A stretch of 64,000 nucleotides of DNA. Source: Lytechinus variegatus (Eukaryota). Shown in pieces: positions 531 to 56,644 of this stretch. The stretch spans positions 58,284,853 to 58,348,852 of the forward strand of contig NC_054742.1 in NCBI RefSeq assembly GCF_018143015.1. Direction: 5' to 3'. Position numbers and translations under genes: made by a program. The notes beneath the pieces were generated by a model. It was not told the origin of the DNA, searched no databases, and saw only the letters and a program-made list of their open reading frames with translations. Each line of letters opens with the position of its first letter. Within the stretch, counting starts at the first letter, position 1.

Positions 531-963
531 AGGTGTTTTGAGAGTTAAATTCTGAATGAACTGCTTTTGCTGGTAAGACATGCACCAAGGATCTGTTTCT
601 TTTATCCATTTTATTTTCCACATTTGTTTTGTTTGATTTCAGTTTTCAGGAGGAAGCCCCCCCCCCATCCTGTGGAAGCCAATGGGGCTGGGGCTTAGAA
701 TAGTGCAAGATAGAGAGGGTAAACCTGAACTTTAGATATCAAAAGACAAACAAAGAATTGTAAAATGAAAATGAATGAAACAAAGACAGATAGAGAGAGA
801 GAGTGGGTGAACTTTCGAGGGGCATAGGAAAGTCTGAGATTAGAAACAACGTTTTTGTTTATTTTTTTATTCATTTATTCTGTTTTCTTTACCCAGGGTA
901 GACTCTTGAGTACAAAACTGCTTTACAAGAGAGCACTGCACATCTACATGTATTTATCAGCAT

Positions 964-1676
964 TAATCCCATCTAGGCCTGGGGGCCTCGGAGGCCCCCC
1001 CCCCCCCTCAACGAATCGCGTGATATTTTCGTCGTGCGAAATTTTCTGACCGCGCCGCTCGCTGACTTTTTACTTTCAAGTCTTGCGCAACTTTTGAGAC
1101 CAATTTTGCGTCACCCGGGTACATGGTTCCGAAATTACGCAACATTATGTAAGTGCATGTCAGACCGAAAATTGCTCAAAAATTGTGTTTTCAACCAAAA
1201 TTCATAAATGTATGATTATTTTTAGTTTTTCTAGTCTAAATGTATTCATTTTATGCTTTTTATGATCACAGAAGAGTCCCCAACAAATTTCATTGAAAAA
1301 ACAATGAAAAACATAAGAAATTGCAATAAACAACATAATACATAAGAAAATGATTTGATATCACAATTTTTTTCATGTACACTTGCTAAGGACACCACAA
1401 AGAGTTTCTATACCAAAAATTAGTACATTTGGAGCTTTATTTAGGGAGTTAAAGGGAAAAGTATGATTTCGCATACTAATTACGCATAAATTAGCGTAAT
1501 AACTTAATAGCGATTCGCATGAAATAAATTACTATACAGTCTTGTAGATTATGCTCCAGGCAACCCGCGTGCCGATTTTCCGCGCGGTCGACGGCTGAGA
1601 TCTTGGGGGGGGGGCCTGGGAGCCCCCCCCCCCGGCCATAGGAACTCCAAAAATACCCAGGCCTAGATAGGGTTAA
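964..1676 (+). mobile_element. MITE-A, a non-autonomous DNA transposon (~710 bp). Its terminal inverted repeats are TTAATCCCATCTAGGCCTGGGGG... and ...CCCAGGCCTAGATAGGGTTAA, with internal poly-C/poly-G tracts. The TTAA-flanked CCC...GGG termini are piggyBac-like.
   Basis: The terminal inverted repeat is read directly from the sequence. A second, inverted copy is present at 9851-12272. Confidence 0.7.
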
Positions 1677-2343
1677 TGGTTTACATAATTTCTAAAATTA
1701 GCGCAAAGCTCTGGCTGAAAATGTGTGATATTCCAACCAGAAATATTGGCATTTTAAGTGTATAAGCCCCTGCCACCCACAGGAGGGCAGAGGGGGCCTT
1801 CCCGCCTATGCTTATTTAAAACAAGTCCCTCCTGCTCGGAGTGAACGAGTCGCTCCCTCACACATATTCAAAAATATTTTGACTAACCTGCCTTTCTTTT
1901 TGATCGGTTGCTTTGCTCCTTCACATACCCTAACAATTTTTTTCTCCTCTACATTTTCTTCTGCTTGGTCACTTCGCTCCCTCTGACATATTCCCAAAAT
2001 ATATTGGCCCCTGCATTTTTCATATATCCCTAAATAATTTTCTGCTCTGTCGCTTCGCTCCCTTGCACATTTCACAAAATGTTTTGCCCCCTCCCCCTGC
2101 ATTTTTTTTTTCTGCAGACATCCATGTCCAGTCCAAACTCTCTATCTCTTTCTCAAATACCTTGGACTGATGGGGAGGGGGGGGGGGTTGCTTTGGATAT
2201 GAGAGTGACTGAACAGTTGAAAATCAGTGAAATATTTGGCTTTTTTTCTTTTGTTAGTATTATCTGTGCGAGTGTATCTTACAAACAGTTTATACCAATT
2301 TCATTATATAAGACATACAAGTATTCTGAGAAATACCAACAGA

Positions 2344-3374
2344 AACAAGTGGAATGCCTCTGGCCTTCTCTCGCCTGCATTACGCGATTCGATATAGCAG
2401 TAGTACTGACTTTGAAAACAGCTAGTACATAATTATTCACAAAAGAATACTATGTCCATTGACCCAAGATGATTTTTGACCATGATCATATGACCTAAGA
2501 CATGTGCAAAACAATTATTTATACTTGATTACCTTATGTCTATGTTTCATGAACTACATGTGTAGATCCATACACTTTCTAAGTTAAAATGCAAATTCAA
2601 CAAATATACCCAACACAGCAAATTTCATTGACCCTAAATGACCTTTGATTTTGGTCATGTGTCCAGAAACAAGCACAAAATATTCAGGAATACATGGTTA
2701 CTCTAATGTCCCATGAACTAGATCTATAAACTTTAAAGTTATGACAATTCCACCAACCCCCCCTCCACATTATCAAAGTTCATTGTCCCTACATGACCTT
2801 TGACCTAGATCATGTTATATGAAACTTGCACAAGATGTTCAGGGATACTTAATTGATCTTAGTCTAAGTTACATGAACTAGATCTCTAAAATGACAGTTA
2901 TGACAATTCCTCAAGTACGCCAACATGGTCAAAGTTCGTTGACCAAAGTGACCTTTGACCTTGGTCAAGTGACCTGAAATTCAGGCAGGATCTTCAGTTA
3001 TACACTATCACCTTATGTCCAAGTTTCATGAACTAGGTCCATACAATCTAGAAGTTATGATATTTCAAATACTTAACCTTGGTTAAGATTTTGATATTGA
3101 TTCCCCCAACATAGTCCAAGTTCATTGACCCTAAATGACCTTTGACCTTGGTCATGTGACCTGACACTCAGGCAGGATGTTCAGTAAGACTGATTACCTT
3201 TACATGTATGTCCGAGTTTCATGTGCTAAGTCTATATATTTTCTACGTTATGATGACTTATGATTTCAAAACTCTAACTTGGTAAAGATTTTAATGTTGA
3301 CGACTCCGCCGTCATTGGAAAAGCGACGCCTATAGTCTCACTCTGCTATGCCGGCGAGGCAAAACCCAGATTCT
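2344..3374 (+). mobile_element. Composite element copy 1. It has an ~80-bp head (AACAAGTGGAATGCCTCTGGCCGTCTCACCTGCAT...), five to six tandem units of ~170 bp (core GACCTTTGACCTTGGTCATGTGACCTGAAA), and a tail (...GCGGCGCCTATAGTCTCACTCTGCTATGCAGGTGAGACAAAA). Head and tail form a 13-bp inverted repeat, GTCTCACCTGCAT / ATGCAGGTGAGAC.
   Basis: There are four copies with the same head, array and tail architecture. Confidence 0.7.
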
Positions 3375-4105
3375 TCCTTATTGTCCAAATCCTTAAAAAA
3401 ATTATGGTAATTTGGCTCTTTCTATATTACCGTCAGTCCCATGAACTAGATCTATAAACTTTAAGTTATGACAATTCCACCATACCCCCCCTCCACATTA
3501 TCAAAGTTCATTGTCCCTACATGACCTTTGACCTAGATCATGTTATATGAAACTTGCACAAGATGTTCAGGGATACTTAATTGATCTTAGTCTAAGTTAC
3601 ATGAACTAGATCTCTAAAATGACAGTTATGACAATTCCTCAAGTACGCCAACATGGTCAAAGTTCGTTGACCAAAGTGACCTTTGACCTGGTCAAGTGAC
3701 CTGAAATTCAGGCAGGATCTTCAGTTATACACTATCACCCTTATGTCCAAGTTTCATGAACTAGGTCCATACACTCTAGAAGTTATGATATTTCAAATAC
3801 TTAACCTTGGTTAAGATTTTGATATTGATTCCCCCAACATAGTCCAAGTTCATTGACCCTAAATGACCTTTGACCTTGGTCATGTGACTTGACACTCAGG
3901 CAGGATGTTCAGTAAGACTTGATTACCTTTACATGTATGTCCGAGTTTCATGTGCTAAGTCTATATATTTTCTACGTTATGATGACTTATGATTTCAAAA
4001 CTCTAACCTTGGTAAAGATTTTAATGTTGACGACTCCGCCGTCATTGGAAAAGCGACGCCTATAGTCTCACTCTGCTATGCCGGCGAGGCAAAACCCAGA
4101 TTCTT
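3375..4105 (+). repeat. Tandem duplicate (~730 bp) of the last four units plus tail of composite copy 1
   Basis: Region 2700-3374 is repeated nearly identically at 3424-4100. Confidence 0.75.
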
Positions 4106-4769
4106 CCTTATTGTCCAAATCCTTAAAAAAAATTATGGTAATTATGCTCTTTCTATATTACCGTCATTCTTAATTCATCTTTTTTTTCTATATCAACAGC
4201 TCATTCTTAATTGTCACCTTGCTCTATCCTGTTCTATTCTTCAGTCAGCTTGCCATCATTCCTTCTTTTCACAAACTTTTTTATCTTCTGCCATTCTAAG
4301 TCAGAATGAATATACTGTAAGACATCATTCGCAAACATTCCTATTTAATGAATTCACTTTTGTTACATGCCCAGTGATAAACTATTTCAAATAATCAGAA
4401 TGCACACAGTGTAAATTATTTGTTGTAAAGTTGTGCAAATTATGTTTGTCCAAACTTAACAGCAAGTACATGTGATCTACACTACAGGATTTCTGTGTGG
4501 TCTTCGGCCTCTTCTCCAAGTTTTTATAACAGTCCATTATTGGTGTTAACTTCCACTTTACTCCTCTTGGACTTTCTGGTATTGAGTAGTAGTGGTCCTC
4601 GAGAAATGAAGGTGCTGAAGACTTTGGTACAGGTGTCTTTGCAGTATCTGGGAGGGTGTTTGCAAAATCGAAATTCTTTCCAGGAATTCCTTGGTTTGGG
4701 TCATTTCTGTACGAGACAAATTAGAAAAAAGAAACATTTAAGAAAAAAAGATATCAAACAAAAGGGAAG

Positions 4770-5300
4770 GTGGTTATTTTCAAGATGGCGTCCAAGATGG
4801 CCGTCACTCAGTATCCACCATAGAATCCCATTTAGTTCGATTTTCATGGTCTATGGGGTAAACAAAATTGTTGATACAGGCTAGAGTGAATCATACATGT
4901 AATCCTTCCAATGTGATTGGCAAATCCAAGATGGCGCCCAAAATGGCTACCATAGGTTAAAAATCCACAATTCATCTAATTTGCTTTTATTTGGTTCTTA
5001 TTCAATGGTTTTAAGGGTGAAGTAGTACATTGGAACAAGTTACAAGGTCTGGTGTGTCCAAAAATCCAAGATGGTGTCCAAAATCCAAAGATGATCGATG
5101 GCTTCCCAAAATGGAGTTTAAAATGGCTGTTGAAAAATAAATTGGACATAGTTCTTTCATATCCACCTGGGACATAATGATTTTGGTTTCTAGACCAGGT
5201 TTCCAATGGTCAAATAAGACATTGGGATAAGTTACAAGGACAGTCGGTTCAAAAATCCAAGATGACTTCCAAAAATGGATTATAAATATTGCTGTTGCTA
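4770..5300. repeat. Array of the 'CCAAGATGGC..AAAATGGCTG' satellite family (~150-160-bp units)
   Basis: Tandem units are present. Related arrays lie at 6440-7780, 9340-9830, 12285-12445 and 13440-13900. Confidence 0.65.
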
Positions 5301-5306
5301 CTTTAA

Positions 5307-6409
5307 AACAAGTGGAATGCCTCTAGCCGTCTCACCTGCATCACGCGATTCAACATAGCAGCAGTGCTGACTTTGAAAACTACTTAACTCGCACAAGAAG
5401 TTCAGTGATACTTGGTTACTCTTATTTCCACATTTTATGAACTAGACCAATACACTTACAGAGATAGGATGGTAATTCAACAAATACCCCAAGGTTGCCA
5501 AAATTCACTGACCTAACATGACCTTTGACCTTGATCATGTGACCTGAAACTTGCACAGGATATTCAGTGATACTTGATTACTCTTATGTCCAAGTTTCAA
5601 AAGTCAGATCAATAAACTTGCAAAGTTATGATGGTAATTCAACAGATACCCCCATTATGGCCAAAGTTCATTGACCTTTGACCTTGTTAATGTGACCTAA
5701 AATGCGCACAGGATGTTCAGTGATACTTGATTACTCTTATGTCCAAGTTTTATGAACTAGACCAACATACTTTCAAAGTTATGATGGTAATTCAACAAAT
5801 ACCCCCAATTCGGCCAAAGTTTATTGACCCTAAATGACATTTGACCTTGATCATGTAACCTGAAACTTGCACAGGATGTTGAGTGATACTTAATTACTAT
5901 TATGTCCACGTTTCATGTATCAGATCCAAAAACTTTTAAAGTTTTGATTGTAATTCAACAGATGCCCCCAACTCGGCCAAAGTTCATTGACCTTAAATGA
6001 CCTTTGACCTTGGTCATGTGACGTGAAACTCATGCAGGATGTTTGGCGATACTTGATTAACCTTATGTCCAAGTTTAATGATCTAGGTCCATATATTTCC
6101 TAAGTTATGATGACATTTCAAAAACTTAACCTCAGGTTAAGATTTTGATGTTGATTCCTCCACATGGTCTAAGTTCATTGACCCTAAATGACCTTTGACC
6201 TTGGTCATGTGACATGAAACTCTAATAGGATGTTCAGTAATACTTGATCAACCTTATGGCCAAGTTTCATGAACTAGGTCCATATACTTTCTAAGTTATG
6301 ATGCCATTTCAAAAACTTAACCTCAGGTTAAGATTTGATATAGATGCCGCCGCCGCCGTCGGAAAAGCGGCGCCTACAGTCTCACTCTGCTATGCAGGTG
6401 AGACAAAAA
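5307..6409 (+). mobile_element. Composite head / tandem-array / tail element, copy 2
   Basis: Head at 5307 and tail at 6350-6409. Confidence 0.7.
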
Positions 6410-6439
6410 CGACAGTTTGCTCAATATCTAGAAATATGA

Positions 6440-7780
6440 TTTTTCTGTGTCTATAACATGGTTAGATGGGTCAAATAATACATTGGGACAAGATACAAGG
6501 AAAGTCAGTGGTCTGTAATGTGCAAAAATCTGAGATGGATCCAAAAATTAATTCTGAAACTGCTATTATTACTGAAAGCAGACATAGCTCATTTCATTTT
6601 GCCCTGGGAGTTGTGACTGTGATGTCTAAACCACTGGTTTCAATGGTCAAATAAAGTAATAGGATAAGTTACAAGGACAGTCAGTGGTCTGGTATGTCCA
6701 AAAATAGAAGATGGCTTCCAAAAACCGATCCTACAAAAAAGGCTGCTGATATTTAAAGCGGACATAGCTTATTTCATTTTGGCCTGGGATATGTGATTTT
6801 GTCTAAACCACTGGTTTCAAGGGTCAATTAATACATTAGGGCAAGTTACAAGTACATTTTGTGGCCTGGGTTGTCAAAAAATCTAAATTGGCTTAAAAAA
6901 ATTATTCTAAATTGACTGTTGTTACTTAAAGCAGACATTCATATCGGCCTGGGAGATGCGATTTTAGTGTCTGATTTCAAGGTTCAAAATAATACATTAG
7001 GACAAGTTATAAGAACATAATCTGGTCTGGTATGACCAAAAATCCAATATGGCTTCTAAAAATTGATTCTAAAGTGGCTGCTGATACTTAAATGTGACAT
7101 AGCTCATTTTATATCCACCGGTGATGTATGATTTTGGTGTCTAAACTATGGTTTCAAGGGTCAAATTATATAGGACAAGTTACAATGACACTCATTGGTC
7201 TAGTATGTTCAAAATTCCAAGATGGCTTCTAAAAATGGAGTGCAAAATGTCTGATGTTACCTTTTTTTTTAAGAAAAGGACATAGTTTGTTCAATATCTG
7301 TCTGGGGAATATGAGTTTGGTGTCTAAACTATGGTTTAAAGGGTCAAGTAATACACCAGGGTTAGTTACAAGACCAGTCAGTTGTCTGTATGTTAAAATC
7401 CAAGACGACTTTAAAAAAAAAAGTGGTGTAAATTGACTGTTTTTACTTAAAAGTGTAAATAGTTTATTAGAATTACACCTCGGAGGTATGATTTTGCCGT
7501 CTACACTAGAATTTTAAGGGTCAATTCGTGCATTGCGTTAAGATGAAAGGACAGTAAGGTGTCAGGTATGTCCAAAAAAAGAAGATGGCTTTTAAATAGG
7601 GGTATTAAATGACTGTTGTTACTTAAAAATGAATAAAGAACATTACAAATACACCTTGAGTGTATTATATTCGTGTCTACGCTAGGGTTTTAAGGGTTGA
7701 AAATACTTTGGGACTGGTTACCATGAATGCAGTTATCTACATGTACTTTCCTTCTAAAAGTTGGCTTCAAAAATGGGTTC
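6440..7780. repeat. About eight units (~160 bp each) of the 'GGGTCAAATAATACATTGGGACAAGTTACAAGGACAGTCAGTGGTCTGGTATGTCCAAAAATCCAAGATGGCTTCC' satellite
   Basis: A clear tandem periodicity with decaying similarity. Confidence 0.75.
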
Positions 7781-7849
7781 TAGATGAAAAAATTAAAATC
7801 CATAATTTATTGTTCAAAATAGACATGAAATGAAATACTCAGAAAATTT

Positions 7850-7995
7850 GCTTTGCCCAATTGATCATGGGCCCGGCAGCCACTATCCCTTTAATCGTTG
7901 AACGCCAAACAGGGTAGCTTGAACCCCCGACCTCCCAGTTGTGAAATAGGCGCTCTACCAACTGAGCCAACACACTGGTGTTGATGCTCATCAGG
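7850..7995 (-). mobile_element. tRNA-derived SINE head (minus strand)
   Basis: The reverse complement reads ...TGGCTCAGTTGGTAGAGCGCCT...GGTCGGGGGTTCAAGCTACCC, with pol-III A and B boxes. Confidence 0.5.
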
Positions 7996-8265
7996 GCCGT
8001 CACCAGCTTTTTTCTGGGGGGGGGGGGGGTGCTTTTTATGAAAAAAAACAAAAACACAAAAACAACGTATTAACTCAATTTCATGCAGTTATATAGCCCG
8101 CCGGCCCGAATGGATATAGAAAGTACATACTGGTCAACATGCCTATTGTTCCTCAATGCAGTTTCGGTGTCTGTGTGTCTTTTTCTTTTTTTTTGGGGGG
8201 GGGTTCTGAAGGGGGGTGCGTTCGCACCCTCCGCACCCCCCCCCCCTGGCGACGGCCCTGCTCAT
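7965..8265. mobile_element. Short inverted-repeat element (CAGGGCCGTCRCCAG ends next to G13 / C12 tracts)
   Basis: 7968-7990 is the reverse complement of 8237-8262. Confidence 0.4.
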
Positions 8266-8393
8266 AGTTCATACAATATCCACCTGTGAGAAATAATCTT
8301 GGTGCCTGCACTTATGCATGGGGATAAGTTGTTTCATGAGTTGGTAAACATACCCATTTTGATGAAAGCTTAGAATCCACCATGAGTTTTGAA

Positions 8394-9305
8394 ACAAATG
8401 GAATGCCTTTGGCGGTCTCAACTGCATCACGCGATTCTATATAGAAGCAGTGCCGACTTTGAAAACTACTATAACTCGCACAAGATGTTCAGTGATACTT
8501 GGTCACTATTATTTCCACGTTTTATGAACTAGACCAATACACTTAGAGATAGGATGGTAATTCAACAAATACCCCAACGTGTCCAAAGTTCATTGACCTC
8601 ACATGACCTTTGACCTTGAACATGTGACCTGAAACTTGCACAGGATATTCAGTGATACTGGATTACTCTTATGTCCAAGTTTCAAAAGTCAGATCCATAA
8701 ACTTTCAAAGTTATGATGGTAATTCAACAGATACCCCCATTATGGCCAAGGTTCATTGACCTTTGACCTTGGTCATGTGACCTAAAATGCGCACAGGATG
8801 TTCAGTGATACTTGATTACTCTTATGTCCAAGTTTTATGAACTAGACAAACATACTTTCAAAGTTATGATGGTAATTCAACAAATACCCCCAATTTGGCC
8901 AAAGTTCAATGATCCTAAATGACCTTTGACCTTGATCATGTGACCTGAAACTTGCACAGGATGTTCAGTGATACTTGATCACTATTATGTCCACTTTTCA
9001 TGTATCAGATCCAAAAACTTTTAAAGTTTTGATTGTAATTCAACAGATGCCCCCAAATCGGCCAAAGTTCATTGACCCTAAATGACCTTTGACCTTGGTC
9101 ATGTGACGTGAAACTCGTGCAGGATGTTTGGTGATACTTGATTAACCTTATGTCCAAGTTTAATGAACTAGGTCCATATATTTTCTAAGTTATGATGTCA
9201 TTTCAAAAATTTAACCTTAGGTTAAGATTTGATGTTGACGCCGTCGCCGCTGCCGTCGGAATAGCGGCGCCTTTAGTCTCACTCTGCTATGCAGGTGAGA
9301 CAAAA
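8394..9305 (+). mobile_element. Composite head / tandem-array / tail element, copy 3
   Basis: Head at 8394 and tail at 9240-9305. Confidence 0.7.
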
Positions 9306-9339
9306 ATGAAATATTTACCATCCTTGTTACTTGTCCAAA

Positions 9340-9830
9340 TATATTATTTGACCCTTTATACCAAATTTAGACACCAACATTATTTCTTATAGATAGATTA
9401 TGTACAACTCTGACCATTGAGAGATATGAGTCGTTTTAGATGTCTTTTTTGAAAACCATCTTAGATTTTTTATGCAAACTGGACAACTGCATATCAATGT
9501 GACCAGTCTAAACGCATAATTTTAAACATGAAACTTTAGTGTGGACACCGAAATCATATCTCCTTGGTGGATTTAAATAAACTATGTCCTTTTTTTAAAG
9601 TAACAGTAGTCATTTTAGACTCTGATTTTTGGAAGTCATCTCAGATTTTCGACATACTGGATGACCACAGACTGTCCTTGTACCTAATTTTCTGACTTTT
9701 AATACCATGGTAAAGACATAAAACCTTGGAGGATATTACATGACCTATGTCCATTTGTAAATGCCAGCGGCTAATATTATCTTTAAGGCCACCATGGAGT
9801 TAAAGACATAATTGTCCATCCATCATCCTT
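9340..9830. repeat. 'CCAAGATGGC' satellite family, inverted orientation
   Basis: It is the reverse complement of the 6440-7780 units. Confidence 0.55.
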
Positions 9831-9985
9831 GTAACATATTCTTATGTATTGTTTATGTTTAACCCTATCTAGGCCGGGGTATTTTGGGAGTTCATATGGC
9901 CGGGGGTGCCATGATCTCGGCCGTGGACCGTGCGATCGCGCCGAAAATTGGCACGCGGGGTTGCCTGGGACATAATCCCGGGGGG

Positions 9986-10486
9986 GCACTTACATTGACG
10001 AGTGGATATCATGCACGACCAAAAAACACGTAAAAAGGATGTCTTTTTCACGATAGGGCACGTTACGTACGTAACGTGATAAGGGTGTCAAAAACACAAA
10101 AATAATGAAAAAAGGGTATCTATTTCGCTAGGAAATTTACGTGTTTAGGGTCGAATTTGCGGGGATGATAAAACAAAATTAATTTGTTTTATAAAGGATA
10201 TCCTTTTTGCTCCAACACTTCGTGTTTAGAGTCCGATTTGCGCGAGGTGTAGAAGTAAAGCCGAAGACCGAAGGACCTGTAACAATAAGACATTCCTGTA
10301 CTTGTTTAGGGGTTCATTTCAGGGAATATTTGCCAAGAGTATCGTTTTGTTTCCAATACTTGTTAAGAGTAGGGTTTCACACGCCAATACTTGTTAAGGG
10401 GTGCATTTTCAGAATATGGAAATTACATGTTTAGGGTGCTTTTCGAGACCCCATGGTCGTGCATGGTATCCTCTCGTGAATGGAAG
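9986..10486. mobile_element. MITE-B (~500 bp), an hAT-like non-autonomous element. Its inverted termini are CCCGGGGGGGCACTTACATTGACGAGTGGATA... and ...CACTCGTGAATGGAAGTGGCCCCC, with an 8-bp target-site duplication ACATAATC.
   Basis: Terminal inverted repeat and target-site duplication are both read from the sequence. A second copy lies at 22655-23212. Confidence 0.7.
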
Positions 10487-10683
10487 TGGCCCCCTCAGGG
10501 ACATAATCTACTAGATTGTCTAGTAATTTATTTCATCCGAATCGCTATTAAGCGATAATGCTAATTTATGCGTAATTAGTATGCGAAATCATACTTTTTC
10601 CTCTAACTCCCTAAATAAAGCTCCAAATTTACTAATTTTTGGTATAGAAACTCTTTGTGGTGTTCTTAGCAAGTGTACATGGA

Positions 10684-11808
10684 AACAAGTGGAATGCCTC
10701 TGGCCGTCTCACCTGCATCACGCGGTTCAATATAGCAGCAGTGCTGACTTTGAATACTACTCTAACTCGCACAAGATGTTCAGTGATACATGGTTACCCT
10801 TATGTCCACTTTTTATGAACTAGACCAATAAACTTACAGAGATATGATGGTTATTCAACAAAAAACCCCAACATGGCCAAAGTTGAGTGACCTTACATGA
10901 CCTTTGACCTTGATCATGTGACCTGAAACTCGAACAGGATGTTCAGTGATACCTGATTACTCTTATGTACAAGTTTCATGAATCAGGTCCATAAACTTTC
11001 AAATTTATGATGGTAATTCAACAGATACACCAATTCGGCCAAAGTTAATTGACCTTTGACCTTGGTCATGTGACCTGAAACGCACACAGGATGTTCAGTG
11101 ATACTTGATTACTCTAATGTCCAAGTTTAATGAACTAGACCAATAAACTTTTAAAGTTATGATGGTAATTCAACAGATACCCCCGATTCGGCCAAAGTTC
11201 ATTGACCCTAAATGACCTTTGACCTTAATCATGAGACCTGAAACTTGCTCAAAACTTTCAGTGATGCTTGATTACTATTATGTCTAAGTTTCATGAATCA
11301 GATCCATAAACTTTCAAAGTTATGATGGGAATTCAACAGATATCCCCAATTCGGCCAAAGTTCATTGACCCTAAATGACCTTTGACCTTGGTCATGTGAC
11401 GTGAAACTCATGCAGGATGTTCAGTGATACTTGATTAACCTTATGTCCAAGTTTCATGAACTAGGTATATATATTTTCTAAGTTATGATGACATTTCAAA
11501 AACTTAACCTCAGGTTAAGATTTCGATGTTGAATCCTCCAACATGGTCTAAGTTCATTGACCCTAAATGACCTTTGACCTTGGTCATGTGACATGAAACT
11601 CTAATAGGATGTTCAGTAATACTTGATCAACCTTATGGCCAAGTTTCATGAACTAGGTCCATATACTTTCTAAGTTATGACGTCATTTCAAAAACTTAAC
11701 CTCAGGTTAAGATTTGATGTTGACGCCGACGCCGCCGTCGGAAAAGCGCCGCCGCCGTCGGAAAAGCGGCGCCTATAGTCTCACTTTGCTTCGCAGGTGA
11801 GACAAAAA
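10684..11808 (+). mobile_element. Composite element copy 4, inserted inside the inverted MITE-A copy
   Basis: Head at 10684. The tail has an internal CCGCCGTCGGAAAAGCG duplication. The flanks are contiguous MITE-A sequence. Confidence 0.7.
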
Positions 11809-12284
11809 TTGCGATATCAAATAATTTTCTTATGTATTTTATTGTTTTTTGCAATTTCTTATGTATTTTTCTTTTTGACCTTTCGTTTTTCATTGTTTTT
11901 TCAATGAAATTTATTGGGGACTCTTCTGTGATCATAAAAAGCAGAAAATAAATACATTTAGACCAGCAAAACTAAAAATAATCATACATTTATGAATTTT
12001 GCTTGAAAACACAATTTGCATTGACTTTGTACACGAAATCACGTTTTTGAGCAATTTTTGGTCCAACATGCACTTACAAAATGTTACGTAATTTTGGAAC
12101 CACGTACCCGGGTGACTTAAAGTTGGTCTCAAAAGTTGCGCAAGACTTGAAAGTAAAAAGTCAGCGAGCGGCACGGTCAAAAAATTTTGCACACCGAAAA
12201 TATTGCGCGATTTGTTGAGGGGGAGGGGCCTCCGAGACCCCCCCCCCCCGCCTAGATAGGGATAACCCATTTAACAATGGTATA

Positions 12285-12445
12285 GGCACAAAAATCATAT
12301 TCCGGATATTGAACAAACTATGACATTGGGTTTTTTTTAAGTAGCAACAGCATTTCTTACTCCTTGGATTTTTGAACATACCTGACCACTGAGTGTTGTC
12401 CCAATGTATTATTTGACCATTGAAACCATGATCTAGACAACAAAA
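12285..12445. repeat. Single unit of the 'CCAAGATGGC' satellite family
   Basis: Similar to the 6440-7780 units. Confidence 0.5.
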
Positions 12446-13439
12446 TCATATTCGCGCCTAATACTAATTTGTTATTATTATTAGCTCACAAGCTTCAGAT
12501 GAAAATTTTACAATTTTTAGAACTTTTTAAACTCAAACACAATTGAATAGGTTTACAGGATTTTATTAGTCATGATTTTAATGCATGTATTTCACATTGT
12601 AACAACTAAAGGGAAACTGTTTTTTATGCCAACATTTTACTCATTTTTATTAAGATTTCTTATGTGGTGGAAGATGTGTTATTTTACAAACTGCGTCATT
12701 CTCCAAATTTTAAGTAAGCGTTCTCAGAATTGAGCAGGACGGTTTCTTGGGACGGGCGACCACTCAGCCCCCCCCCTTGGTTCTTCTTCTTTTTTTTTTA
12801 TCTGTATGCTTAATGAGTGCAAGGTGTCAGGGGTGACTGCTGGGTTGGTGGGTGCAGTTGTTTGATTTAACGTGCTTATGGTTGGTTGTTTGGATGAATG
12901 AGGAGTGTGCTATGAATGTAAATGTTTTTTTTTTTTTGTAAGAGATTGTTTGTCGGCCCTATTAATGTAGTGAGGTTAGCTGACCCTAAGTTCCGCCTGA
13001 GCGATGGATTTGAATAACCAATTCCATTGCCCAGGTTGAATGGTGTTGTAGAGGATTGGCATTCCCTGGCTGGAGCTGTGCATTGAACTTGACTGCTCGC
13101 TCGTCCCCAGACACACTCCTGTCTTTAGTTCTTTTGTTACTTGCTTAAATCTACGTTTTTATTGTTTGAATTTGAGTGGCGATGTTTGTCAATAAGCATT
13201 CTTCCACCACCACCATCTTTCAGTCTTCTATTTGTTCTTTTGTTAAGTTGCATTATATTTTCTTAATCAATTCAAGTTTTGATGTTTTTAAATCAGCTAT
13301 TTATACATGTATATACCTGTAAATTGTACACAATACAGCCTTTTGGCTGCAACGTGCAATGATTTCGAATAAAATCTTTTCAATTCAATTCATCTCACAT
13401 GTAGATATGATATCAGCTATGTCCATTTTAATCATACAG

Positions 13440-14672: not shown

Positions 14673-17550
14673 ACATGGGTCAGTCCATGTCATATCAACC
14701 AATGCTTGTCACCCAACCCACTTTGATTTTCTTTAAACTCGCACAAAATGTTGCCCCAAGTGTCTGACGGAAAAATCTGAAATATTTTGCCCCAAGGTCA
14801 AATGGTTGCTAAGATACGGCCTCCCATAGCAACCAATGCGCGCACAACAAAATTATTTTAAATAAAATTGCCTATTTTTGATTGACTACTGCAGCAAAGT
14901 TTGATTGATAGCAGTCTTTATTTTCAGTAAATTGGAAGAACTTTTTGGTCTAAACATGCAGAGTATACTGTAGCGCGGACCTGTCAACCGGATTTTGCAC
15001 ACGAGGCCACCGAAAATGGCGTTAAGCATCCGTGTCAATGATTTCAGAAGCATGTTTGGAGGCTCATAAATCCAAAACTAAATTAGCTTAGAACCAAATA
15101 TTGTGCACATTAATGTACTTTCAGATACTCAACAGATTTACAAAAAATTGACCAAAGAGTATGTGTCGTTTTCCTGTAGGGCGCCGTCAAAGTTGGATAT
15201 TTTCAAAAGATGCCAAGTTCAAGGTCACGGATCGCCTCCCGTCCCATCGAGGAGGGGGACCAATTTCTGTGTTTTGATAGACATTTACCCATATTTTCAA
15301 GTGTTACTTGAGAAATTTTGCTAACGGAATGTTTAGGGGCTGATTTGCGCAATCCAAAATGGTCGTAAACACCCTAAAATTGATGTTAATGACAATATAT
15401 GCTTTTCAACAATTTTCAAATTGTGATAACTCAAAGATGAAGAGCCCAAAGACATTGATATCTTCTGTGACGATAGTCTGTAATTAGTATTAAAAGAATA
15501 TATCTTCAGAAATATTTTTATTGTTGGCAAGGACCTTGAAAACACACCTAAAATTCAATAAAAACAGTAAATTTGCTAATTTTCCAGAATCATAATGGTG
15601 TTTACATTGACTTTCAAATGGGTGTCATTTCAATACAAAGGGTGAGCTTAAGCCAAAACTTGAAAGACATGTTCAACTTTTGGTCTACTTTGGGCAACAT
15701 AAAATATTTGAACTCAAAACCATATCATTTGACCTTGAAATTATTCCAAATATAGCTATTTGTTGCTTCATAAGTACATGTAGCACATCCAAATCGCGCG
15801 TGTACTTTGTACTTTGCAACACATTTCAAAATGAATTTTCTCATAGAGAGAATACCTGATCAGGCTGATATTTGCAGTATAAGTAGTCTGTAATGGGTTC
15901 TTGGAGGATCTTAAGATTAAGTACCTATTCTCTCATGACAATGACCTTGAAAATACAGCTGAAAATAATCAATAAATCATACAATTTTCATAAATAATCA
16001 AGTGTTTTTTATCAACTTTTCATTGTGTGTTATTCCATCTTGGATTGTGAGTTCATGCTGATAATTGCAAATCCTGTTCCACTTTTGGTCTACTTTCAGC
16101 TACATAAAATATTTGAACTCAAGACCATATCATTTGACCTTGAAATTATTCTAAATATAGCTATATGTTGCTTTATAAGTAGCATATTCAAATCGTGCGT
16201 GTACATTGTACTTTGCAACCTATTTCAAAATGGATTTTCTCATAGAGAGAATACATGATCAGGCTGATATTTGCAGTATTAGTAGTCTGTAATTAGTGCT
16301 TGGAAAATCTACAGTTTAGGTAACTATTCTATCAAGACATGAGTGGGTTAAAAACACTTGATTACTAATGAAAATAGTATGATTTATTGATTTTCACGAT
16401 TATCAGCTGTATTTTCAAGGTCATTGTCATGAGAGAATAGGTACTTAATCTGTAGGTCCTCCAAGAACTCATTACCAACTACTTATACTGCAAATATCAG
16501 CCTGATCAGGTATTCTCTCTATGAGAAAATCCATTTTGAAATGTGTTGCAAAGTACAATGAACACGCGCGATTTGAATATGCTACTTATGAGCAACAAAT
16601 GGCTATATTTGGAATAATTTCAAGGTCAAATGATATGGTTTTGAGATCAAATATTTTATGTTGCTCAAAGTAGACCAAAAGTTGAACATGTCTTTCAAGT
16701 TTTGGCTTAAGCTCACCCTTTGTATTGAAATGACACCCATTTGAAAGTCAATGTAAACACCATTTGAATGCCATTATGATTCTGGAAAATTAGCATATTT
16801 ACTGTTTTTATTGAATTTTAGGTGTGTTTTCAAGGTCATTGCCAACAATAAAAACTATTTCTGTAGATATATTCTTTTAATACTAATCACAGACTACCAC
16901 CACAGAATATATCAATGTCTTTGGGCTCTTCATCTTTGAGTTATCACAATTTGGGAGGTGATCCGTGACCTTGAACTTGGCATCTTTTGATAAAAATCCA
17001 ACTTTGAGGGCGCCCTACAGGAAAATGACACGTACTCTTGGGTCAATTTTTTGTAATTCTGTCGAGTATCTGAAAGTACATTAATGTGCATAATATTTGG
17101 TTCTAAGCTAATTCAGTTTTGGATTTATGAGCCTCCAAACATGCTTCTGAAATCATTGACACGGATGCTTAACGCCATTTTCGGAGACCTCGTGTGCGAA
17201 ATCCGGTTGACAGGTCCGCGCTACAGTATACTCTGCATGTTTAGACCAAAAAGTTCTTCCAATTTACTGAAAATGAAGACTGTAATCAATCAAACTTTGC
17301 TGCAGTAGTCAATCAAAAATAGGCAATTTTATTTAAAATATAGGCAATTTTATTTAAAATAATTTTGTTGTGCGCGCATTGGTTGCTATGGGAGGCCGTA
17401 TCTTAGCAACCGACCTTCTGGCAAAATATTTCAGATTTTTCCGTCAGACACTTGGGGCAACATTTGGTGCGAGTTTAAAGAAAATCGAAGAGGGTCGGGT
17501 GACAAATTGTCTGAAAATTGGTTGATTTGACGTGGATTGACCCACATACC
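14673..17550. mobile_element. Foldback-like palindromic element (~2.9 kb). Its long inverted arms carry a ~400-bp sub-repeat, present twice in the left arm.
   Basis: 14673-16330 is the reverse complement of 16340-17550. A ~190-bp indel lies in the left arm at 15228-15420. A 21-bp duplication TAGGCAATTTTATTTAAAATA lies in the right arm. Confidence 0.7.
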
Positions 17551-22180: not shown

Positions 22181-22654
22181 CACGACAATAGATGATTCGT
22201 GACGTTGTATACATTAATGAGGAGACTGGGTGGCAGAAACGACCAACCCAAATAGCCAAGTACCGAGCACTCCGTTGTTACATCCAACATTTACCATCAA
22301 ATCATCCAGAGTATGAGAAGATCAGACGTCTCGTCTTGTCGACGATGCCTGGGTATTTATCTTAATGATAATAATAATAACAATAGTAATTATTACAATA
22401 CAAGTTATTACAATACAAGTAATAATGATAATTCTTATTTTACCCTCGCCTCGGGTTTGGGACTAACACTTGTTTTGCGATTGAACTTAAGTTTCTTGCA
22501 ATGCCCAATTAAAGTTAGTCGATATTTCAAATTTAAAAAAATAAGGGTTTATGATAAATTTTCTAGCATTTATGATCAAGCATCGTCCTTGAGAAAAATG
22601 TCTTAGATGAAGGAAGATGAAATTTGGTATTGTTTGCACAATGGTTTGTCTCGG

Positions 22655-23212
22655 AACCCGGAGGGGCCCACTTACATTGACGAGTGGATACCATGCGCGA
22701 CCAAAAAAAACACGTAAAAAGGATGTCTTTTTCACGATAGGGCACGTTACGTACGTAACGTGATAAGGGTGCCAAAAACACAAAAATAATGAAAAAAGGG
22801 TATCTATTTCGCTAGGAAAATTACGTGTTCAGGGTCGAATTTGCGGGGATGATACAACAAAATTAAAATGTTTTATAAAGGATGTCCTTTTTGCCCCAAC
22901 ACTACGTGTTTAGAGTCCGATTTGCGCGAGGTGTAGAAGTGGGGTCGTACTAAACCAAATAAGGTAAAGCCGACGACCGAAGGAACCGTAACAATAAAAC
23001 ATTCCTGTACTTGTTTAGGGGTTCATTTCAGGGAATATTTGCCAAGAGTATCGTTTTTGTTTCCAATACTTGTTAAGGGTAGGGTTTCACACGCCAATAC
23101 TTGTTAAGGGGTTCATTTTCAGAATATGGAAATTACGTGTTTAGGGTGCTTTTCGAGACCCCTTGGTCGCGCATGGTATCCACTCGTGAATGGAAGTGGC
23201 CCCCCGGGTCTC
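22655..23212. mobile_element. MITE-B copy 2, with an 8-bp target-site duplication TCTCGGAA
   Basis: CCCGGAGGGGCCCACTTACATTGACGAG...CTCGTGAATGGAAGTGGCCCCCCGGG, flanked by TCTCGGAA on both sides. Confidence 0.75.
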
Positions 23213-23490
23213 GGAATTATCAATAATCTTTTTTTCTGTTTACATCCCCCTTATAACAAAACGCAATATGATTATCATTGTATAGTAAATCATTATGATT
23301 AATTATCAAGATGTAAATTATAAAAGATAAGGGTAATTTCGTACAAGCAAATTGTTTCATGAATTTCTCAAAAGTTTATTTCCATTGACCGATGAAAAGG
23401 CATAGACCTAAAATCATCATTGGATTAAAGTAAGTAAAGTAAGAAAGTATCTGATTTTATATTTTGCTTTTCTTGTTGCTCTTGTCAAGA

Positions 23491-39817: not shown

Positions 39818-40610
39818 GTACGTGTCATTACATTTCTTATTACATGTACCTCCCTTGTACTTTCTTAATTCTTTGTTTTGGAATTTATCCTAGTAGAATC
39901 TGAAAACCGAGAATTTCTGAGAATCAAAGGGCTTCGGAAAGTAGATTTATTTAGAGCAATTTTCAGTTTTTATAAAGTGAGTGCAGAAAACCTTTTTTAC
40001 ATTTTCAATAATCAAAATATGTCTTTACAATTTGGCTCCTTTTTTAATTCAGTCTTTGGGCATAGGATATTCATGGGATGATAATATTCCAAGTATCAGT
40101 TATTATAATGTGAAGCGTAGCACATAATATGATATTTTAATATCCTAGTTCTGGGGACATTTTCGTACACTTTACCCATCAGATGGGGACGTCCTATAAA
40201 ACCAGGGACGATTTATGGAGTCCAGATAACCATACAAAACAATTCCTCATCTCATTTCAAACCAATTCATATTAAGTAAACGCATGATTTGTGAAAATAT
40301 CCCGTTTGGCCAATTAAACTCAAGTCGTGTGTTTTAGGTTGAGGGTTGTCCCCGATTGGCGGACTATGTTAACGCTATGTCCGAAAATGAGCCAGGTTGG
40401 TGGATTAAATTCAAAATTTGGGTGTACGAGACCGCACATGCACGTCTCAACTTTGGAGATTAATGAAAAATATCGAGTGCCTGATTGTCAAATTACAAGA
40501 AACGGTGTGTGTGTGTGGGGGGGGGGGGTGTGGATGAATATTAGGGTGCGTGTGTGCGTTTGTAGTGTATTCACCTTACCTCTAACTTGATTTATATTTA
40601 TTGCACACAG

Positions 40611-42311
40611 CTACAGGATATGTCCAGAGAGGTCCAACTGCAGTCAGGCCTATAAGTCTAGCCAAAAAGGAAATTAGAAAAGCAGTTAAATACCAATCGA
40701 GAAGGACATTTCCTTTCTCTTCGTTCTTGAAGCCAAAGAAGAAGGAAAAGAAGAAAATGGAACCAATATCGTTCGCAATGCATTCCGCCGCACCTGCTGA
40801 GAGGAGGCAATTTCGTGGTGGTGTGGTGAGTATGTCGAGTAAACCTAAAGAAGAGAGAGCATTGGACCAAAGGGAAACCGAACTAGTAGATGATGATAAC
40901 AGGGCTACTACACTGGATCAAGCAACTCTAGATGAACTCAGGAGGCAAGCTACCCGACTTGAAGAACAGCTAAAAAAAGAAGACTCACTTCTAGCGTCGG
41001 TCAAAGTGTTTAAAAAGAAGAAATCGTTGGGAAGAAGTTCATTGTTTGGATGGGGGAAAGGAAAAAGCAAACGGGAAAAGACAGTAGTAAAGAGTAAGGG
41101 TGCGACTATTTCTATTGGTAGTGGTGAAAAAAAATACGAAGAGCGGGAAGAAGCTGCTAGATATCTACCATCTGCACGCTTGATGAAGTTTGCTGAGTCG
41201 GATAAGAAGGTATGTGATTCAACTGCAGAGTCTCGCCGGCCTTCACCCCCGGCCATGGATGCGGATGAGGATCGATCATTAGAAGCATCTAAAGATTCTT
41301 TACATGAGAAGGAAGGGGAAGATGAAACAACTTATGCATTATCAGCCGAGTACAGCCCGCCATCATCACCAGCATTAGCTAGGGCACGACCGATTGAGGT
41401 ACTGTCACAGGGGAGTCCGGAAACATCTGACGACGAATTTCAGCAAATGTACAGTCTACTGTCAGCATCAACTAAATCACGGTCACTATCTTCGACGCCG
41501 TCACCACCAGAAGTTTATCTGAAGTATGGGCCAGCCCGTCCGGAGTCTCCACCATCTCCACCGCTGGTACTAGGAGCGGAAGCTCCATTGCCATCACCAT
41601 CAGGACCACCACAACCTCCTCCAGTGCCTCCTACTTCTGGTTCCGTATTGACACGTAAGATGCTGGGAGTGACACGTAGGATGCTGGGAGTGTCACCTCC
41701 TCCACCATTGCCATCCCGCTCAATGCCCCTCTTCTCTTCTGCATCCTCCTCCGGATGCAGGCCCACCAATGCCGGGAGTGTCACCTCCTCCTGCTCCACC
41801 ATTGCCACCTCCTTCAGCAGGCCTGCCAACAAGTAGGAGGATGCCGGTAGTGCCACCTCCTCCTCCTCCACCATTGCCACCCCGCTCAATGCCCTCTTCT
41901 CTTCTGCATTCTCCTCTGGATGCAGCCCCACCAATGCCGGGAGTGTCCCCTCCTCCTCCACCAACGCCACCTCCTCCAGCAGGCCTGCCAACAAGTAGGA
42001 GGATGCCGGTAGTGCCACATCCGCCGACTGCCCCTCGATTCCAGCCTCGCTCAAAGTCATCTTCTCGCTTTGACAGTACTGATTTGAAATCGAAGGATAA
42101 ATCTGTCGCAGACCAAGATATGATGTTCGATTTAACACTTCTTAGTACTATTACCCCAATCATGGATGGTGATGATGATGATGAGGATGATATCATATGG
42201 GAAGATGGTGAACTAATGGAACCAAAGAAGACTTGCAAATCACCAATCATATTTAAAGAGTCAAAGAGGACAGTTTCGGATTTCAACCACGTGATGTCTT
42301 TACAAAATAAG
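40611..42311 (+). CDS. PARP4: Large exon for the disordered region of PARP4 (~1.7 kb, Lys/Ser/Pro-rich). It carries poly-Pro 'PPPPPLP' motifs and an internal ~165-bp tandem duplication. As assembled, an apparent +1 frameshift lies near 41726-41729.
   Basis: Acceptor is cacag|CT (phase 1, consistent with the upstream exon). The terminal donor is AAG|gtaagt (phase 0, consistent with the next exon). The 5' frame stops at 41836. The 3' frame (ORF 41769..42323) runs through to the donor. Confidence 0.6.
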
Positions 42312-42625
42312 GTAAGTTACTGAGAGATAATTGCAAATAAAACATGGGAATCAGTTCTGTGCAAATGTTGTTTTTATTTATCATATATGATGTGTTTTTT
42401 TATCATTCTTACAATAGCAAAGTATGTTTCAATTCATCCAAGATAATATTTATGTACCAGACCTTCATTTTTTGTTACAGCTTTTATGTTACTTGTCAGT
42501 TTCACATTCAAAATGAATCGGTTTCTAATATATATATAACCCTCGATCAAATTACCTGTAGCTTTTTTCTCTCGCATTGTGTGCTTTAATCTCTTCCTAT
42601 GAATGTTATTTGGTTACTATTGCAG

Positions 42626-55753: not shown

Positions 55754-56301
55754 CTTGTAGGCTTATAACAAGTTGCATAACGCAAACAATAATAATGATA
55801 TCGTTGACTCTAAGCGAAATCCAGAAGCAATTTAATTTCCATTTGGAAGTGTTTGGCATCTGGTGCATTTGGTACTGATTTGAACTCTTACTAATTTGCA
55901 CTTTACTAGGGCAAATAAAGTATATTTTAAATAAGAGAGACTTACTATTTCCAGCAACAAAGTTAAATCAAATTAAGCAACTCATAAGAGTACGTTTGAT
56001 AATATATTCATATCCAATATATTAAAATCATATTTATGTAGCTTATGAATTCATACTCTAATATCTGATCCGTATTCCATGACAATGCTCATACCTTCTT
56101 CTCTTTGGAGAAGCATGGTTATGTAAACTTCTGTCATACAATTATACATAGGCCTATAATTTGACGTCATCTTATTTTACATTGTCTAATTCAGTTATTA
56201 AAGTAGATAGGCCCTATCAACAATATGACTTAGAGTTTAAGTTTAATTCAATTGTTACATTGGTTGAGGAGAAAATGATATAAGTGAACATCTGAACATA
56301 C

Positions 56302-56644
56302 CAAGGTGGACGCCGACATTTTTAATATCCTCTTCTGTAAGCGCCGATTCTCTGTATTTGTTGATATTACAGACAGTAATGGCTGGAAACTCCACTTCAG
56401 TCGTGTAGTAGACGTCAACTTGGGTGACATGGTTAAAAGAAATATATCCCTTTATAACAAGGTAGCATTCAAAAATACAGAAACCAAGTGCAGTTAAGAA
56501 GAGGCACAGCCAGATGAGACGTCGGAATGTGTTTCCAGATCCTGCTATGTGTTTGAGACCATGTAGATCGGAAGTGTCCGCGGCCCATCGACGAAGGTGG
56601 CATCTTCCAGGTCGGCATCCCATCTTCAGTTGGGATGTGATCAA
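56302..56644 (-). CDS. ASIC-like exon 1 (MITSQLKMGCRPGRCHLRRWAADTSDLHGLKHIAGSGNTFRRLIWLCLFLTALGFCIFECYLVIKGYISFNHVTQVDVYYTTEVEFPAITVCNINKYRESALTEEDIKNVGVHL)
   Basis: It matches ASIC1 'FASSSTLHGLAHIF...RALWALCFLGSLAVL...YYFHYHHVTKLDEV...FPAVTLCNLNEFR'. The donor on the minus strand is CTTG|gtatgt (phase 1). Confidence 0.8.

Follow-up and report, generated by a model that had tools for sequence, protein, structure and literature searches.

An inverted piggyBac-like MITE interrupted by MITE-B and a probable Helentron-type element within a tandem array of Lytechinus variegatus

The window analyzed here is a stretch of 64,000 nucleotides of Lytechinus variegatus DNA. At 9859–12265 it contains a copy of a piggyBac-like element, MITE-A, which is cut into three colinear pieces by two inserts, MITE-B and element C (Table 1). 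By its anatomy, element C can be classed with the non-autonomous Helentrons (HINEs) of pearl/DTC84/Cg_HINE type. The two inserts lie 181 bp apart, each directly within MITE-A. A second, uninterrupted MITE-A copy is found in the opposite orientation at 963–1676 and serves below as the reference. The nest is a real one, in which an inverted piggyBac-type element is interrupted by two later, unrelated insertions.

Table 1. Positions in the window of the nest, its component parts and related copies
Feature	Position	Strand	Basis or remark
MITE-A, uninterrupted copy (element 967-1672, TTAA at 963-966 and 1673-1676)	963..1676	-	sequence read; alignment; pattern search
HINE copy C2, no duplication, at A-run of plus-oriented ~177-bp array	5306..6409	-	flanks rejoin at monomer phase 114/117
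HINE copy C3, shorter by one 192-bp unit	8391..9307	-	
Host ~177-bp tandem array, left flank of nest	9323..9858	-	flanks rejoin in monomer phase 8/9
TTAA target-site duplication, left, nested MITE-A	9859..9862	+	sequence read; TIR+TTAA pattern search
MITE-A piece 1, left inverted repeat CCCTATCTAGGCC, ends with left ACATAATC (9970-9977)	9863..9977	+	matches reference 1676-1547
MITE-B, 523 bp, ~45-bp terminal inverted repeats (CCGGGGGGGCACTTACATTGACGAG... / CCCTGAGGGGGCCACTTCCATTCACGAG...)	9978..10500	+	second copy 95.4% identical
Target-site duplication made by MITE-B, right 8-bp copy ACATAATC	10501..10508	+	single in reference and five external relatives
MITE-A piece 2	10509..10681	+	matches reference 1553-1364, 92%; post-excision alignment
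HINE copy C4, full-length, 1127 bp, putative non-autonomous Helentron	10682..11808	-	copy comparison and anatomy in PMC4067079, PMC7492417, PMC3879986
HINE 3' sub-terminal inverted repeat GCAGGTGAGAC (element strand), 24 nt from 3' end	10706..10716	-	
HINE central tandem array, 163-bp units x 4.5 then 192-bp units x 1.9	10764..11723	-	Tandem Repeats Finder; unit order as in C2
HINE GC-rich microsatellite-like segment, 20-bp unit x 2.2 in C4	11724..11773	-	
HINE short partner repeat GTGAGAC	11778..11784	-	minus-strand reading
HINE 5' sub-terminal inverted repeat GTCTCACCTGC	11793..11803	-	6 pattern matches vs 0.39 expected
MITE-A piece 3, right inverted repeat GCCTAGATAGGG	11809..12261	+	matches reference 1374-981
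Right target-site duplication, decayed, ATAA from TTAA	12262..12265	+	sequence read; alignment; pattern search
Host ~177-bp tandem array, right flank of nest	12266..12451	-	
MITE-B second copy, own 8-bp duplication TCTCGGAA at 22649-22656 and 23209-23216	22657..23208	+	
MITE-B end sequence CCCGGAGGGGCCCACTTACATTGACGAG			

Alignment of the reverse complement of 940–1700 against the nest returned three blocks, at 9859–9977 (75%, E 6e-19), 10502–10691 (92%, E 6e-76) and 11801–12242 (81% with indels, E 1e-128). After excision of both inserts, the two MITE-A copies were identical at 632 of 690 aligned columns (91.6%; 91.4% in a second computation), and the three pieces joined without loss or overlap except for an 8-bp duplication. 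This duplication, ACATAATC, is exact on either side of MITE-B, and the reference holds the site once, as GCATAATC. The HINE lies in an A7/T7 run without any target duplication; the reference and five external relatives have A7-8 at this place. Colinearity, junctions, duplications, the anatomy of the elements and the existence of independent copies with other flanks are all directly observed.

A sequence-only reading had proposed an inverted MITE-A split by later inserts. The three colinear blocks and the empty sites in the unsplit copy bear this out, as do the flanks, which line up once the inserts are removed. Several details had to be revised. The nest had been placed at 9851–12272, but MITE-A with its TTAA borders occupies 9859–12265, and the reference begins at 963 instead of 964. 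The reference copy had been called intact, but the internal deletions described below show that it is not. For MITE-B, the proposed uninterrupted junction at 9985/10487 leaves 8 + 14 nt of MITE-B termini and both copies of the duplication in place, and the actual junction is 9977/10501. The HINE junction, given as 10683/11809, was right to within 1 nt. It had also been stated that the empty sites could be rebuilt base by base. This does not hold for the HINE junction, where an A7 empty site meets A-rich element ends (GAAACAA..., ...ACAAAAA) and the scores for cutting at 10681/11802 or at 10688/11809 are nearly equal (518 versus 516). The nest had been described as three-level, but it has two transposon levels, MITE-B and the HINE being siblings inside MITE-A, and its sole third level is the surrounding ~177-bp array, which had been missed. 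Since the two inserts are siblings, the order of events, previously considered fixed, is a partial one: MITE-A preceded MITE-B and MITE-A preceded the HINE, with no order between the inserts.

Each of the two MITE-A copies of the window has inverted ends CCCTATCTAGGCC...GGCCTAGATAGGG bordered by TTAA on both sides (4 matches versus 0.13 expected), the target site being TTAA in three cases and decayed in the fourth. The first five bases, CCCTA, are those of the classic piggyBac end. Five external relatives, 66-74% identical and with different flanks, were found in two ENA metagenome assemblies, one labelled SOLA22-1. In these relatives, TTAA adjoins CCCTAA...TTAGGG; L004 and L008 have it on both sides, whereas L005, L007 and L009 have it on one. 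All five carry the MITE-B target as a single copy and the A-run at the HINE site unbroken. Neither insert is present in any of the six other family copies examined (one in the window, five external). Relative to other family members, the copy at 963–1676 has internal deletions of 22 bp and 29 bp, which are absent from the nested copy and from all external relatives but one (L008 is gapped over the 22-bp segment). Large ORFs beside the relative on contig L005 were considered as an autonomous piggyBac and rejected, as they are C2H2 zinc-finger genes. The MITE-A end pattern had no match in viral contigs.

The two MITE-B copies have 45-bp inverted repeats in common and are flanked by two different, perfect 8-bp duplications. 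Their termini are CCCGGAGGGGCC... / CCCGGGGGGCC... (CCCGG...CCGGG) and agree with none of the superfamilies against which they could be compared. Internally, the motif TAC(G/T)TGTT(T/A)AG(G/A)G recurs in the same orientation, with 4 pattern matches at 9978–10500 and 6 at 22657–23208. In hAT elements, the terminal inverted repeats are short and start with (T/C)A(A/G)NG, and the target consensus is nTnnnnAn for the Ac type and nnnTAnnn for the Buster type. With two sites for comparison, ACATAATC fits the Buster consensus alone and TCTCGGAA half of the Ac consensus. Duplications of 8 bp are also made by P, Merlin and some Mutator-like elements. A search with the longest MITE-B ORF gave no external relatives.

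On the minus strand, element C begins with TTTTT, followed by a sub-terminal inverted repeat, a short inverted repeat, a GC-rich microsatellite-like stretch, the tandem array, the 3' sub-terminal inverted repeat and 24 nt ending CTTGTTTC. The 11-bp repeats GTCTCACCTGC and GCAGGTGAGAC, which lie 5 nt and 24 nt from the 5' and 3' ends, respectively, are perfect in C2 and C4 and have one mismatch in C3; their window matches form three convergent pairs. The partner GTGAGAC lies 8 nt downstream of the 5' repeat and is conserved in all HINE copies. The 5' repeat and this partner form a hairpin with good folding scores (z = -3.8 and -4.7 for the two copies folded). Near the 3' end, a HINE would be expected to have a palindrome or stem-loop; here the stem after the 3' repeat has only 3 bp (GCC-AGA-GGC), and the 3' end folds no better than shuffles (z = -0.6, 0.06 and -0.2). 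The microsatellite-like stretch that separates the 5' flank from the array is of GACGGCGGCG type, variable in length and without a clean tetranucleotide. Rfam gave no match at gathering thresholds, hence no tRNA- or SINE-type origin. The 5' flank pattern had no match in metagenomes; scanning for the array motif gave one 1-kb contig (L003) with ~25 nt in common and nothing in prokaryotic genomes.

Sub-terminal inverted repeats of 11-13 bp, set back by a few nucleotides at the 5' end and by tens of nucleotides at the 3' end, are the criterion for a HINE (PMC4067079, PMC7492417), and such repeats, a microsatellite and a central array are among the features that define HINE, pearl and DTC84 elements (PMC4067079, PMC7492417, PMC3879986). 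Element C displays these features, with a complementary short repeat within the expected 1-22 bp downstream of the 5' sub-terminal repeat, a microsatellite by the 5' flank then central tandem repeats, and T-rich insertion without duplication. Regarding the labels proposed by the sequence-only reading, "piggyBac-like" fits MITE-A, judging from the TTAA targets and inverted ends in the window copies and external relatives. "hAT-like" agrees with the 8-bp duplication of MITE-B, but not with its CCCGG...CCGGG termini, its 45-bp repeats and the lack of a hAT motif. The "composite head/tandem-array/tail element" is indeed a full copy, colinear with C2 (5306–6409) across 1127 columns at 89.7%, but its anatomy appears to be that of a HINE rather than of a novel composite.

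Four HINE copies lie on the same strand within 10 kb, with common ends and unrelated flanks. Other repeats harbor two of them, and another lies precisely where two inverted ~177-bp array blocks meet. For C2, the empty site rebuilt from the ~177-bp array reads CTTAAAG/CGG, again without duplication. The nest may belong to a local Helentron landing zone, with rolling-circle re-insertion or a nascent satellite-seeding cluster instead of four independent hits, although we consider this unlikely.

The ~177-bp array also surrounds the nest. When MITE-A and one TTAA are removed, the array flanks rejoin in phase, and the additional nesting level is therefore real. We looked for signs that this array forms the center of a further HINE. 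Its shared "head" (4764–5006 versus 13815–13554) has no sub-terminal repeats and contains degenerate monomer-like motifs only. The contigs of two proteins matched by an ASC/ENaC exon (86% and 55% identity) carried none of the three elements.

Taken together, these observations suggest the following history. A degenerate ~177-bp tandem array would have been present first. A non-autonomous piggyBac-type MITE-A of ~740 bp would then have been pasted into a TTAA of one monomer by cut-and-paste, with the transposase supplied in trans. MITE-B and the HINE would have entered MITE-A independently, MITE-B through a DDE-type transposase whose 8-bp staggered cuts duplicated ACATAATC, and the 1127-bp HINE, with its 163/192-bp satellite-like array, into the A7/T7 run without duplication in a rolling-circle (Rep/helicase/endonuclease) fashion. 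All parts would since have diverged by roughly 5-10%. We infer all the enzymes, since the window contains no piggyBac transposase partner for MITE-A, no transposase partner for MITE-B and no Rep/helicase/endonuclease partner sharing the HINE termini; likewise, we infer that the insertions occurred at this very locus. Pairwise K2P distances (0.092 for MITE-A, 0.048 for MITE-B and 0.089 for HINE C2–C4) are compatible with MITE-A being older than MITE-B, and with two to three copies per family they cannot order MITE-B against the HINE. A stack of ordinary insertions (array, then MITE-A, then MITE-B and the HINE) is very probably the best explanation of the locus.

One alternative is that MITE-B, the HINE or both entered MITE-A elsewhere, and that the resulting 2.4-kb composite was moved here by a piggyBac-type transposase. 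PiggyBac transposases tolerate internal cargo, the nested MITE-A retains both inverted ends, and the window provides no date for the MITE-A insertion relative to its inserts. Against such a move, neither insert occurs in any of the other family copies examined (0/6), and the decayed ATAA, together with ~8-9% divergence, suggests that MITE-A has long been immobile. We find this scenario improbable.

We attach similarly little probability to the possibility that element C is a classical inverted-repeat MITE and not a Helentron derivative. It would then have been inserted by a DDE transposase duplicating AA, which is how pearl and DTC84 were originally interpreted. These were first described with inverted repeats near the ends and flanking A's (PMC3879986), and element C likewise carries an inverted repeat close to each end, with A's on either side. 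However, its repeats are sub-terminal, and each of the two rebuilt empty sites is an A-run in which no bases were gained that might count as a duplication. Moreover, Thomas et al. linked elements of this anatomy to autonomous Helentrons and saw no modification of the target (PMC4067079), and the oyster Cg_HINE elements match Repbase Helitron-N entries (PMC7492417).

The region is dense in repeats, with four HINE copies in 10 kb, and this is where assemblers tend to fail. An assembly chimera of reads from different repeat copies is nevertheless very improbable, as each junction bears exactly the mark that genuine insertion would leave: an 8-bp duplication without mismatch for MITE-B, an A-run as target for the HINE, and TTAA with host flanks in phase for MITE-A. 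Finally, precise loss of both inserts from an ancestral split copy, to give the unsplit one at 963–1676, can be invoked because this copy has lost other segments (22 and 29 bp), but it is effectively refuted by the five insert-free external relatives and by MITE-B and HINE copies that occur alone elsewhere, differently flanked and with duplications of their own, and the 8-bp target in the reference is clean, single and without an excision footprint.

The locus, read as a stack of insertions, documents the empty sites of three element families cleanly and with internal controls. Among these families would be a Helentron-type carrier of satellite-like repeats, caught inserting in a T/A run without duplication, and the MITE-A family is common to other metazoan genomes. 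For annotation, it provides exact element boundaries and a caution that nesting yields a partial order only. It has little import beyond annotation and opens no new question: nested transposons of this sort are ordinary in animal DNA rich in repeats, and the nest does not represent a novel type of feature.

Cg_HINE (Crassostrea gigas), pearl (C. virginica), DTC84 (Donax trunculus) and DINE-1/HINE elements have the same module order as element C, with 5' T's, an 11-bp sub-terminal repeat, a complementary short repeat, a GC-rich microsatellite, an array, a 3' repeat and a short tail. They also share with it 2-6 tandem units of 160-190 bp, an array that moves with the element in fixed unit order, insertion in T/A runs without duplication, and transposons as targets; in oyster, HINEs are on record as having entered other DNA transposons (PMC7492417). 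In contrast, the microsatellite of element C is of GGC/GAC type instead of a clean GTCY or ACGG tetramer, and its 3' palindrome is minimal. Its monomer matched none of the oyster clusters compared, and its array motif TGACCTTTGACC was not found in the parts of the PMC7492417 supplements that were consulted. A literature search for diagnostic sequence strings returned unrelated primer matches only, and accession strings returned nothing.

Like piggyBac-derived MITEs, MITE-A has a TTAA duplication, CCC...GGG termini and a 13-17-bp inverted repeat beginning CCCTA, is non-coding and ~700 bp long, and has family members in other genomes that are differently flanked; unlike them, it has G-run/C-run hairpins just inside both ends. 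MITE-B shares with hAT-type MITEs the 8-bp target duplication, seen in both copies, but differs in its termini, which are without the hAT terminal motif, and in its inverted repeats, which are not short. As in nested transposon clusters such as those of maize intergenic retrotransposons, younger elements interrupt older ones and so give a relative order. Compared with these clusters, the nest is small (2.4 kb), consists of non-autonomous DNA elements only and has two transposon levels only.

A similarity search with the reverse complement of positions 940-1700 of the window, which is 64% A+T and repeat-dense, returned three colinear downstream matches. We excised the segments 9978-10508 and 10682-11801 and re-aligned the remainder with the unsplit copy of MITE-A. 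Our results showed that the two sequences agree in 632 of 690 aligned columns (91.6%), with 89 gap columns grouped in a few discrete indels; the element-only alignment gave 91.4% identity (K2P 0.092). On the strength of these identities, the inverted, split MITE-A copy is real and well past chance. MITE-A carries both structural hallmarks of the piggyBac type, the TTAA duplication and CCC...GGG inverted ends, and TTAA followed by CCCTATCTAGGCC (at most two mismatches) is found in the window at exactly the four MITE-A ends, against 0.13 expected.

Coordinates of the nested elements, their other copies and further features (window positions, except for external contigs)
Feature	Position	Details
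MITE-A block 1	9859-9977	75%, E 6e-19 vs reverse complement of 940-1700
MITE-A block 2	10502-10691	92%, E 6e-76 vs same
MITE-A block 3	11801-12242	81% with indels, E 1e-128 vs same
Unsplit MITE-A	967-1672	TTAA at 963-966 and 1673-1676
Split MITE-A	9863-12261	TTAA at 9859-9862; decayed ATAA at 12262-12265
MITE-B, nested	9978-10500	duplication ACATAATC at 9970-9977 and 10501-10508
MITE-B, second copy	22657-23208	95.4% identical, K2P 0.048; own perfect 8-bp duplication TCTCGGAA, unlike the nested copy's
Insert C (nested HINE, C4)	10682-11808	
Other element C copies	2342-3364; 5306-6409 (C2); 8391-9307 (C3)	same strand as nested copy; flanks unrelated
External MITE-A relatives	L004 44-809; L005 5132-5858; L007 ~5146-5760; L008 ~2710-3314; L009 ~797-1487	
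Tandem duplication (~730 bp)	2708-3438; 3436-4169	recent, 98.4% identical
Large inverted repeats	14676-17544	14676-15240 vs 17544-16953 (89.6%); 15417-16017 vs 16953-16342 (91%); palindromic core 15936-16844
Long open frames	40601-42323 (+)	internal repeat 41678-42066
Sodium-channel exon	56255-56644 (-)	

External relatives of MITE-A were found using a spurious 112-aa ORF in the right half of the element as query, and the encoding contigs were then compared. Five independent copies, 66-74% identical to the window copies and all with different flanks, came from contigs of metazoan appearance in two ENA metagenome assemblies, ERZ23498645 (SOLA22-1) and ERZ26222911; the MITE-A family is therefore common to several species. 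In contigs L004 and L008, CCCTAA...TTAGGG is adjoined by TTAA on both sides; in L005, L007 and L009 this is so for one end. An autonomous transposon on one of these contigs was ruled out, since the genes there are C2H2 zinc-finger genes, which mark it as metazoan DNA. Neither insertion site is interrupted in any of the five relatives: the first has a single ...GTAATCTAC... and the second an A7-8 run. The unsplit copy at 963-1676, previously taken as an intact reference, proved to have lost 22 bp and 29 bp when aligned with these relatives. Both segments are present in the split copy; the 29 bp are kept in all five relatives and the 22 bp in four, the exception being a gap in L008. The unsplit copy also has two substitutions in its right inverted repeat.

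The first insert, MITE-B, occupies a target site that the unsplit MITE-A holds once, reading GCATAATC. The junction proposed by the sequence-only reading, 9985/10487, places both cuts inside the inverted repeats of MITE-B, off by 8 and 14 nt. These terminal repeats are ~45 bp long and start with CCCGG. The motif TAC(G/T)TGTT(T/A)AG(G/A)G lies in the same orientation six times inside the second copy and four times inside the nested copy, and nowhere else across the window; it may represent transposase-binding sub-terminal repeats. MITE-B had been called hAT-like. Its 8-bp duplication is compatible with hAT, but such duplications fit several other superfamilies equally well, its termini differ from the hAT (T/C)A(A/G)NG type and a search with its longest ORF recovered no outside relative; for these reasons we assign it to no superfamily.

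The second insert, C, has the build of a HINE (non-autonomous Helentron), and the junction proposed for it, 10683/11809, agrees with ours within one base. The empty site reads CATG-AAAAAAA-TTGTG, and C itself has the termini GAAACAA... and ...ACAAAAA. Other possible cut points in this A-rich site have nearly equal alignment scores (518 vs 516), so the junction does not allow the base-by-base rebuilding that had been claimed. On the minus strand, element C starts with 4-5 T's at the 5' end. Next come the 11-bp sub-terminal repeat GTCTCACCTGC and, after a spacer of 8 nt, a complementary GTGAGAC. A GC-rich, microsatellite-like stretch that varies in length leads into the tandem array, made of 4.5 units of 163 bp and 1.9 units of 192 bp; the inverse repeat GCAGGTGAGAC follows, and the final 24 nt end in CTTGTTTC. 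Across the window there are six sub-terminal repeats vs 0.39 expected, arranged as three convergent pairs. Folding was significantly better than that of shuffles for the 5' hairpin and not for the 3' end. A HINE target preference is supported by a second rebuilt empty site, CTTAAAG|CGG, in a ~177-bp array that is split by HINE copy C2: the two array flanks meet at monomer phase 114|117 and show no duplication.

The four HINE copies lie on one strand within 10 kb (2342-11808), two of them inside other repeats; this could reflect local re-insertion or be a chance outcome, for which orientation by itself gives 1 in 8. The ~730-bp tandem duplication covers the end of the oldest copy and 75 bp of flank.

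B and C are 181 bp apart, each directly in A and neither within the other, and the nest described as three-level therefore has two transposon levels. There is a genuine further level below A, namely the ~177-bp tandem array in which it sits: the flanks of the nest (9323-9858 and 12266-12451) are inverted ~177-bp repeats, and taking out A together with one TTAA brings them back into monomer phase, at 8|9. The order of insertion, said to be fixed, holds for A before B and A before C, with B and C unranked relative to each other. Pairwise divergences (A, 0.092; B, 0.048; HINE C2-C4, 0.089) are compatible with A first and likewise give no ranking of B vs C.

The degenerate ~177-bp array forms two inverted blocks, 4764-8312 (+) and 13815-9323 (-), with HINE C3 between them; the plus block contains C2, and the minus block contains the MITE-A nest. 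Also in the minus block, ~940 bp (12452-13390) resemble neither the array nor any other window sequence and show no clear inverted repeats or duplication; they could be another insertion.

What the analysis shows directly is the junction signatures, the presence of every element in independent copies that have other flanks, and empty sites in the window and in outside genomes. We considered that A and its inserts were mobilised here as a composite; the six further A copies examined all lack the inserts. Reading C as a DDE-type "AA-duplicating" MITE is at odds with empty sites that lack a duplication, and the junction signatures speak against mis-assembly. Derivation of the unsplit copy through precise loss of the inserts is refuted by the outside A copies and by B and C copies that stand on their own. 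For nested insertion, knowledge of these families suggests that A would have moved by piggyBac-type cut-and-paste, B through a DDE transposase making 8-bp staggered cuts, and C by rolling-circle Rep/helicase/endonuclease integration at a T-run. The enzymes would all have been supplied in trans, because A, B and C do not code for protein.

Elsewhere in the window, the inverted repeats at 14676-17544 may be a foldback-type element. The frames at 40601-42323, rich in proline repeats (PPPPPLP-type), are probably a host-gene coding exon. The minus-strand exon at 56255-56644 encodes the N terminus of a sodium channel of the ASC/ENaC type; the two nearest proteins in the database share 86% and 55% identity with it and carry PF00858.

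Taken as a whole, the sequence-only reading was right about nested insertions, while one junction, the depth, the claimed order and two of the three element labels need correcting. Every component of the nest is of a known kind, and transposons within transposons, HINEs in DNA transposons included, were previously described; the observation is correct but ordinary. The anatomy of element C is that defined for non-autonomous Helentrons (PMC4067079). It matches that of the oyster Cg_HINE, which has satellite-like arrays, inserts at T-rich sites without duplication and is frequent inside other DNA transposons (PMC7492417); the oyster clusters available for comparison gave no match to the array monomer. 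Read in the opposite orientation, element C has the structure of pearl and DTC84, "L + core repeats + microsatellite + R, flanked by AA" (PMC3879986).
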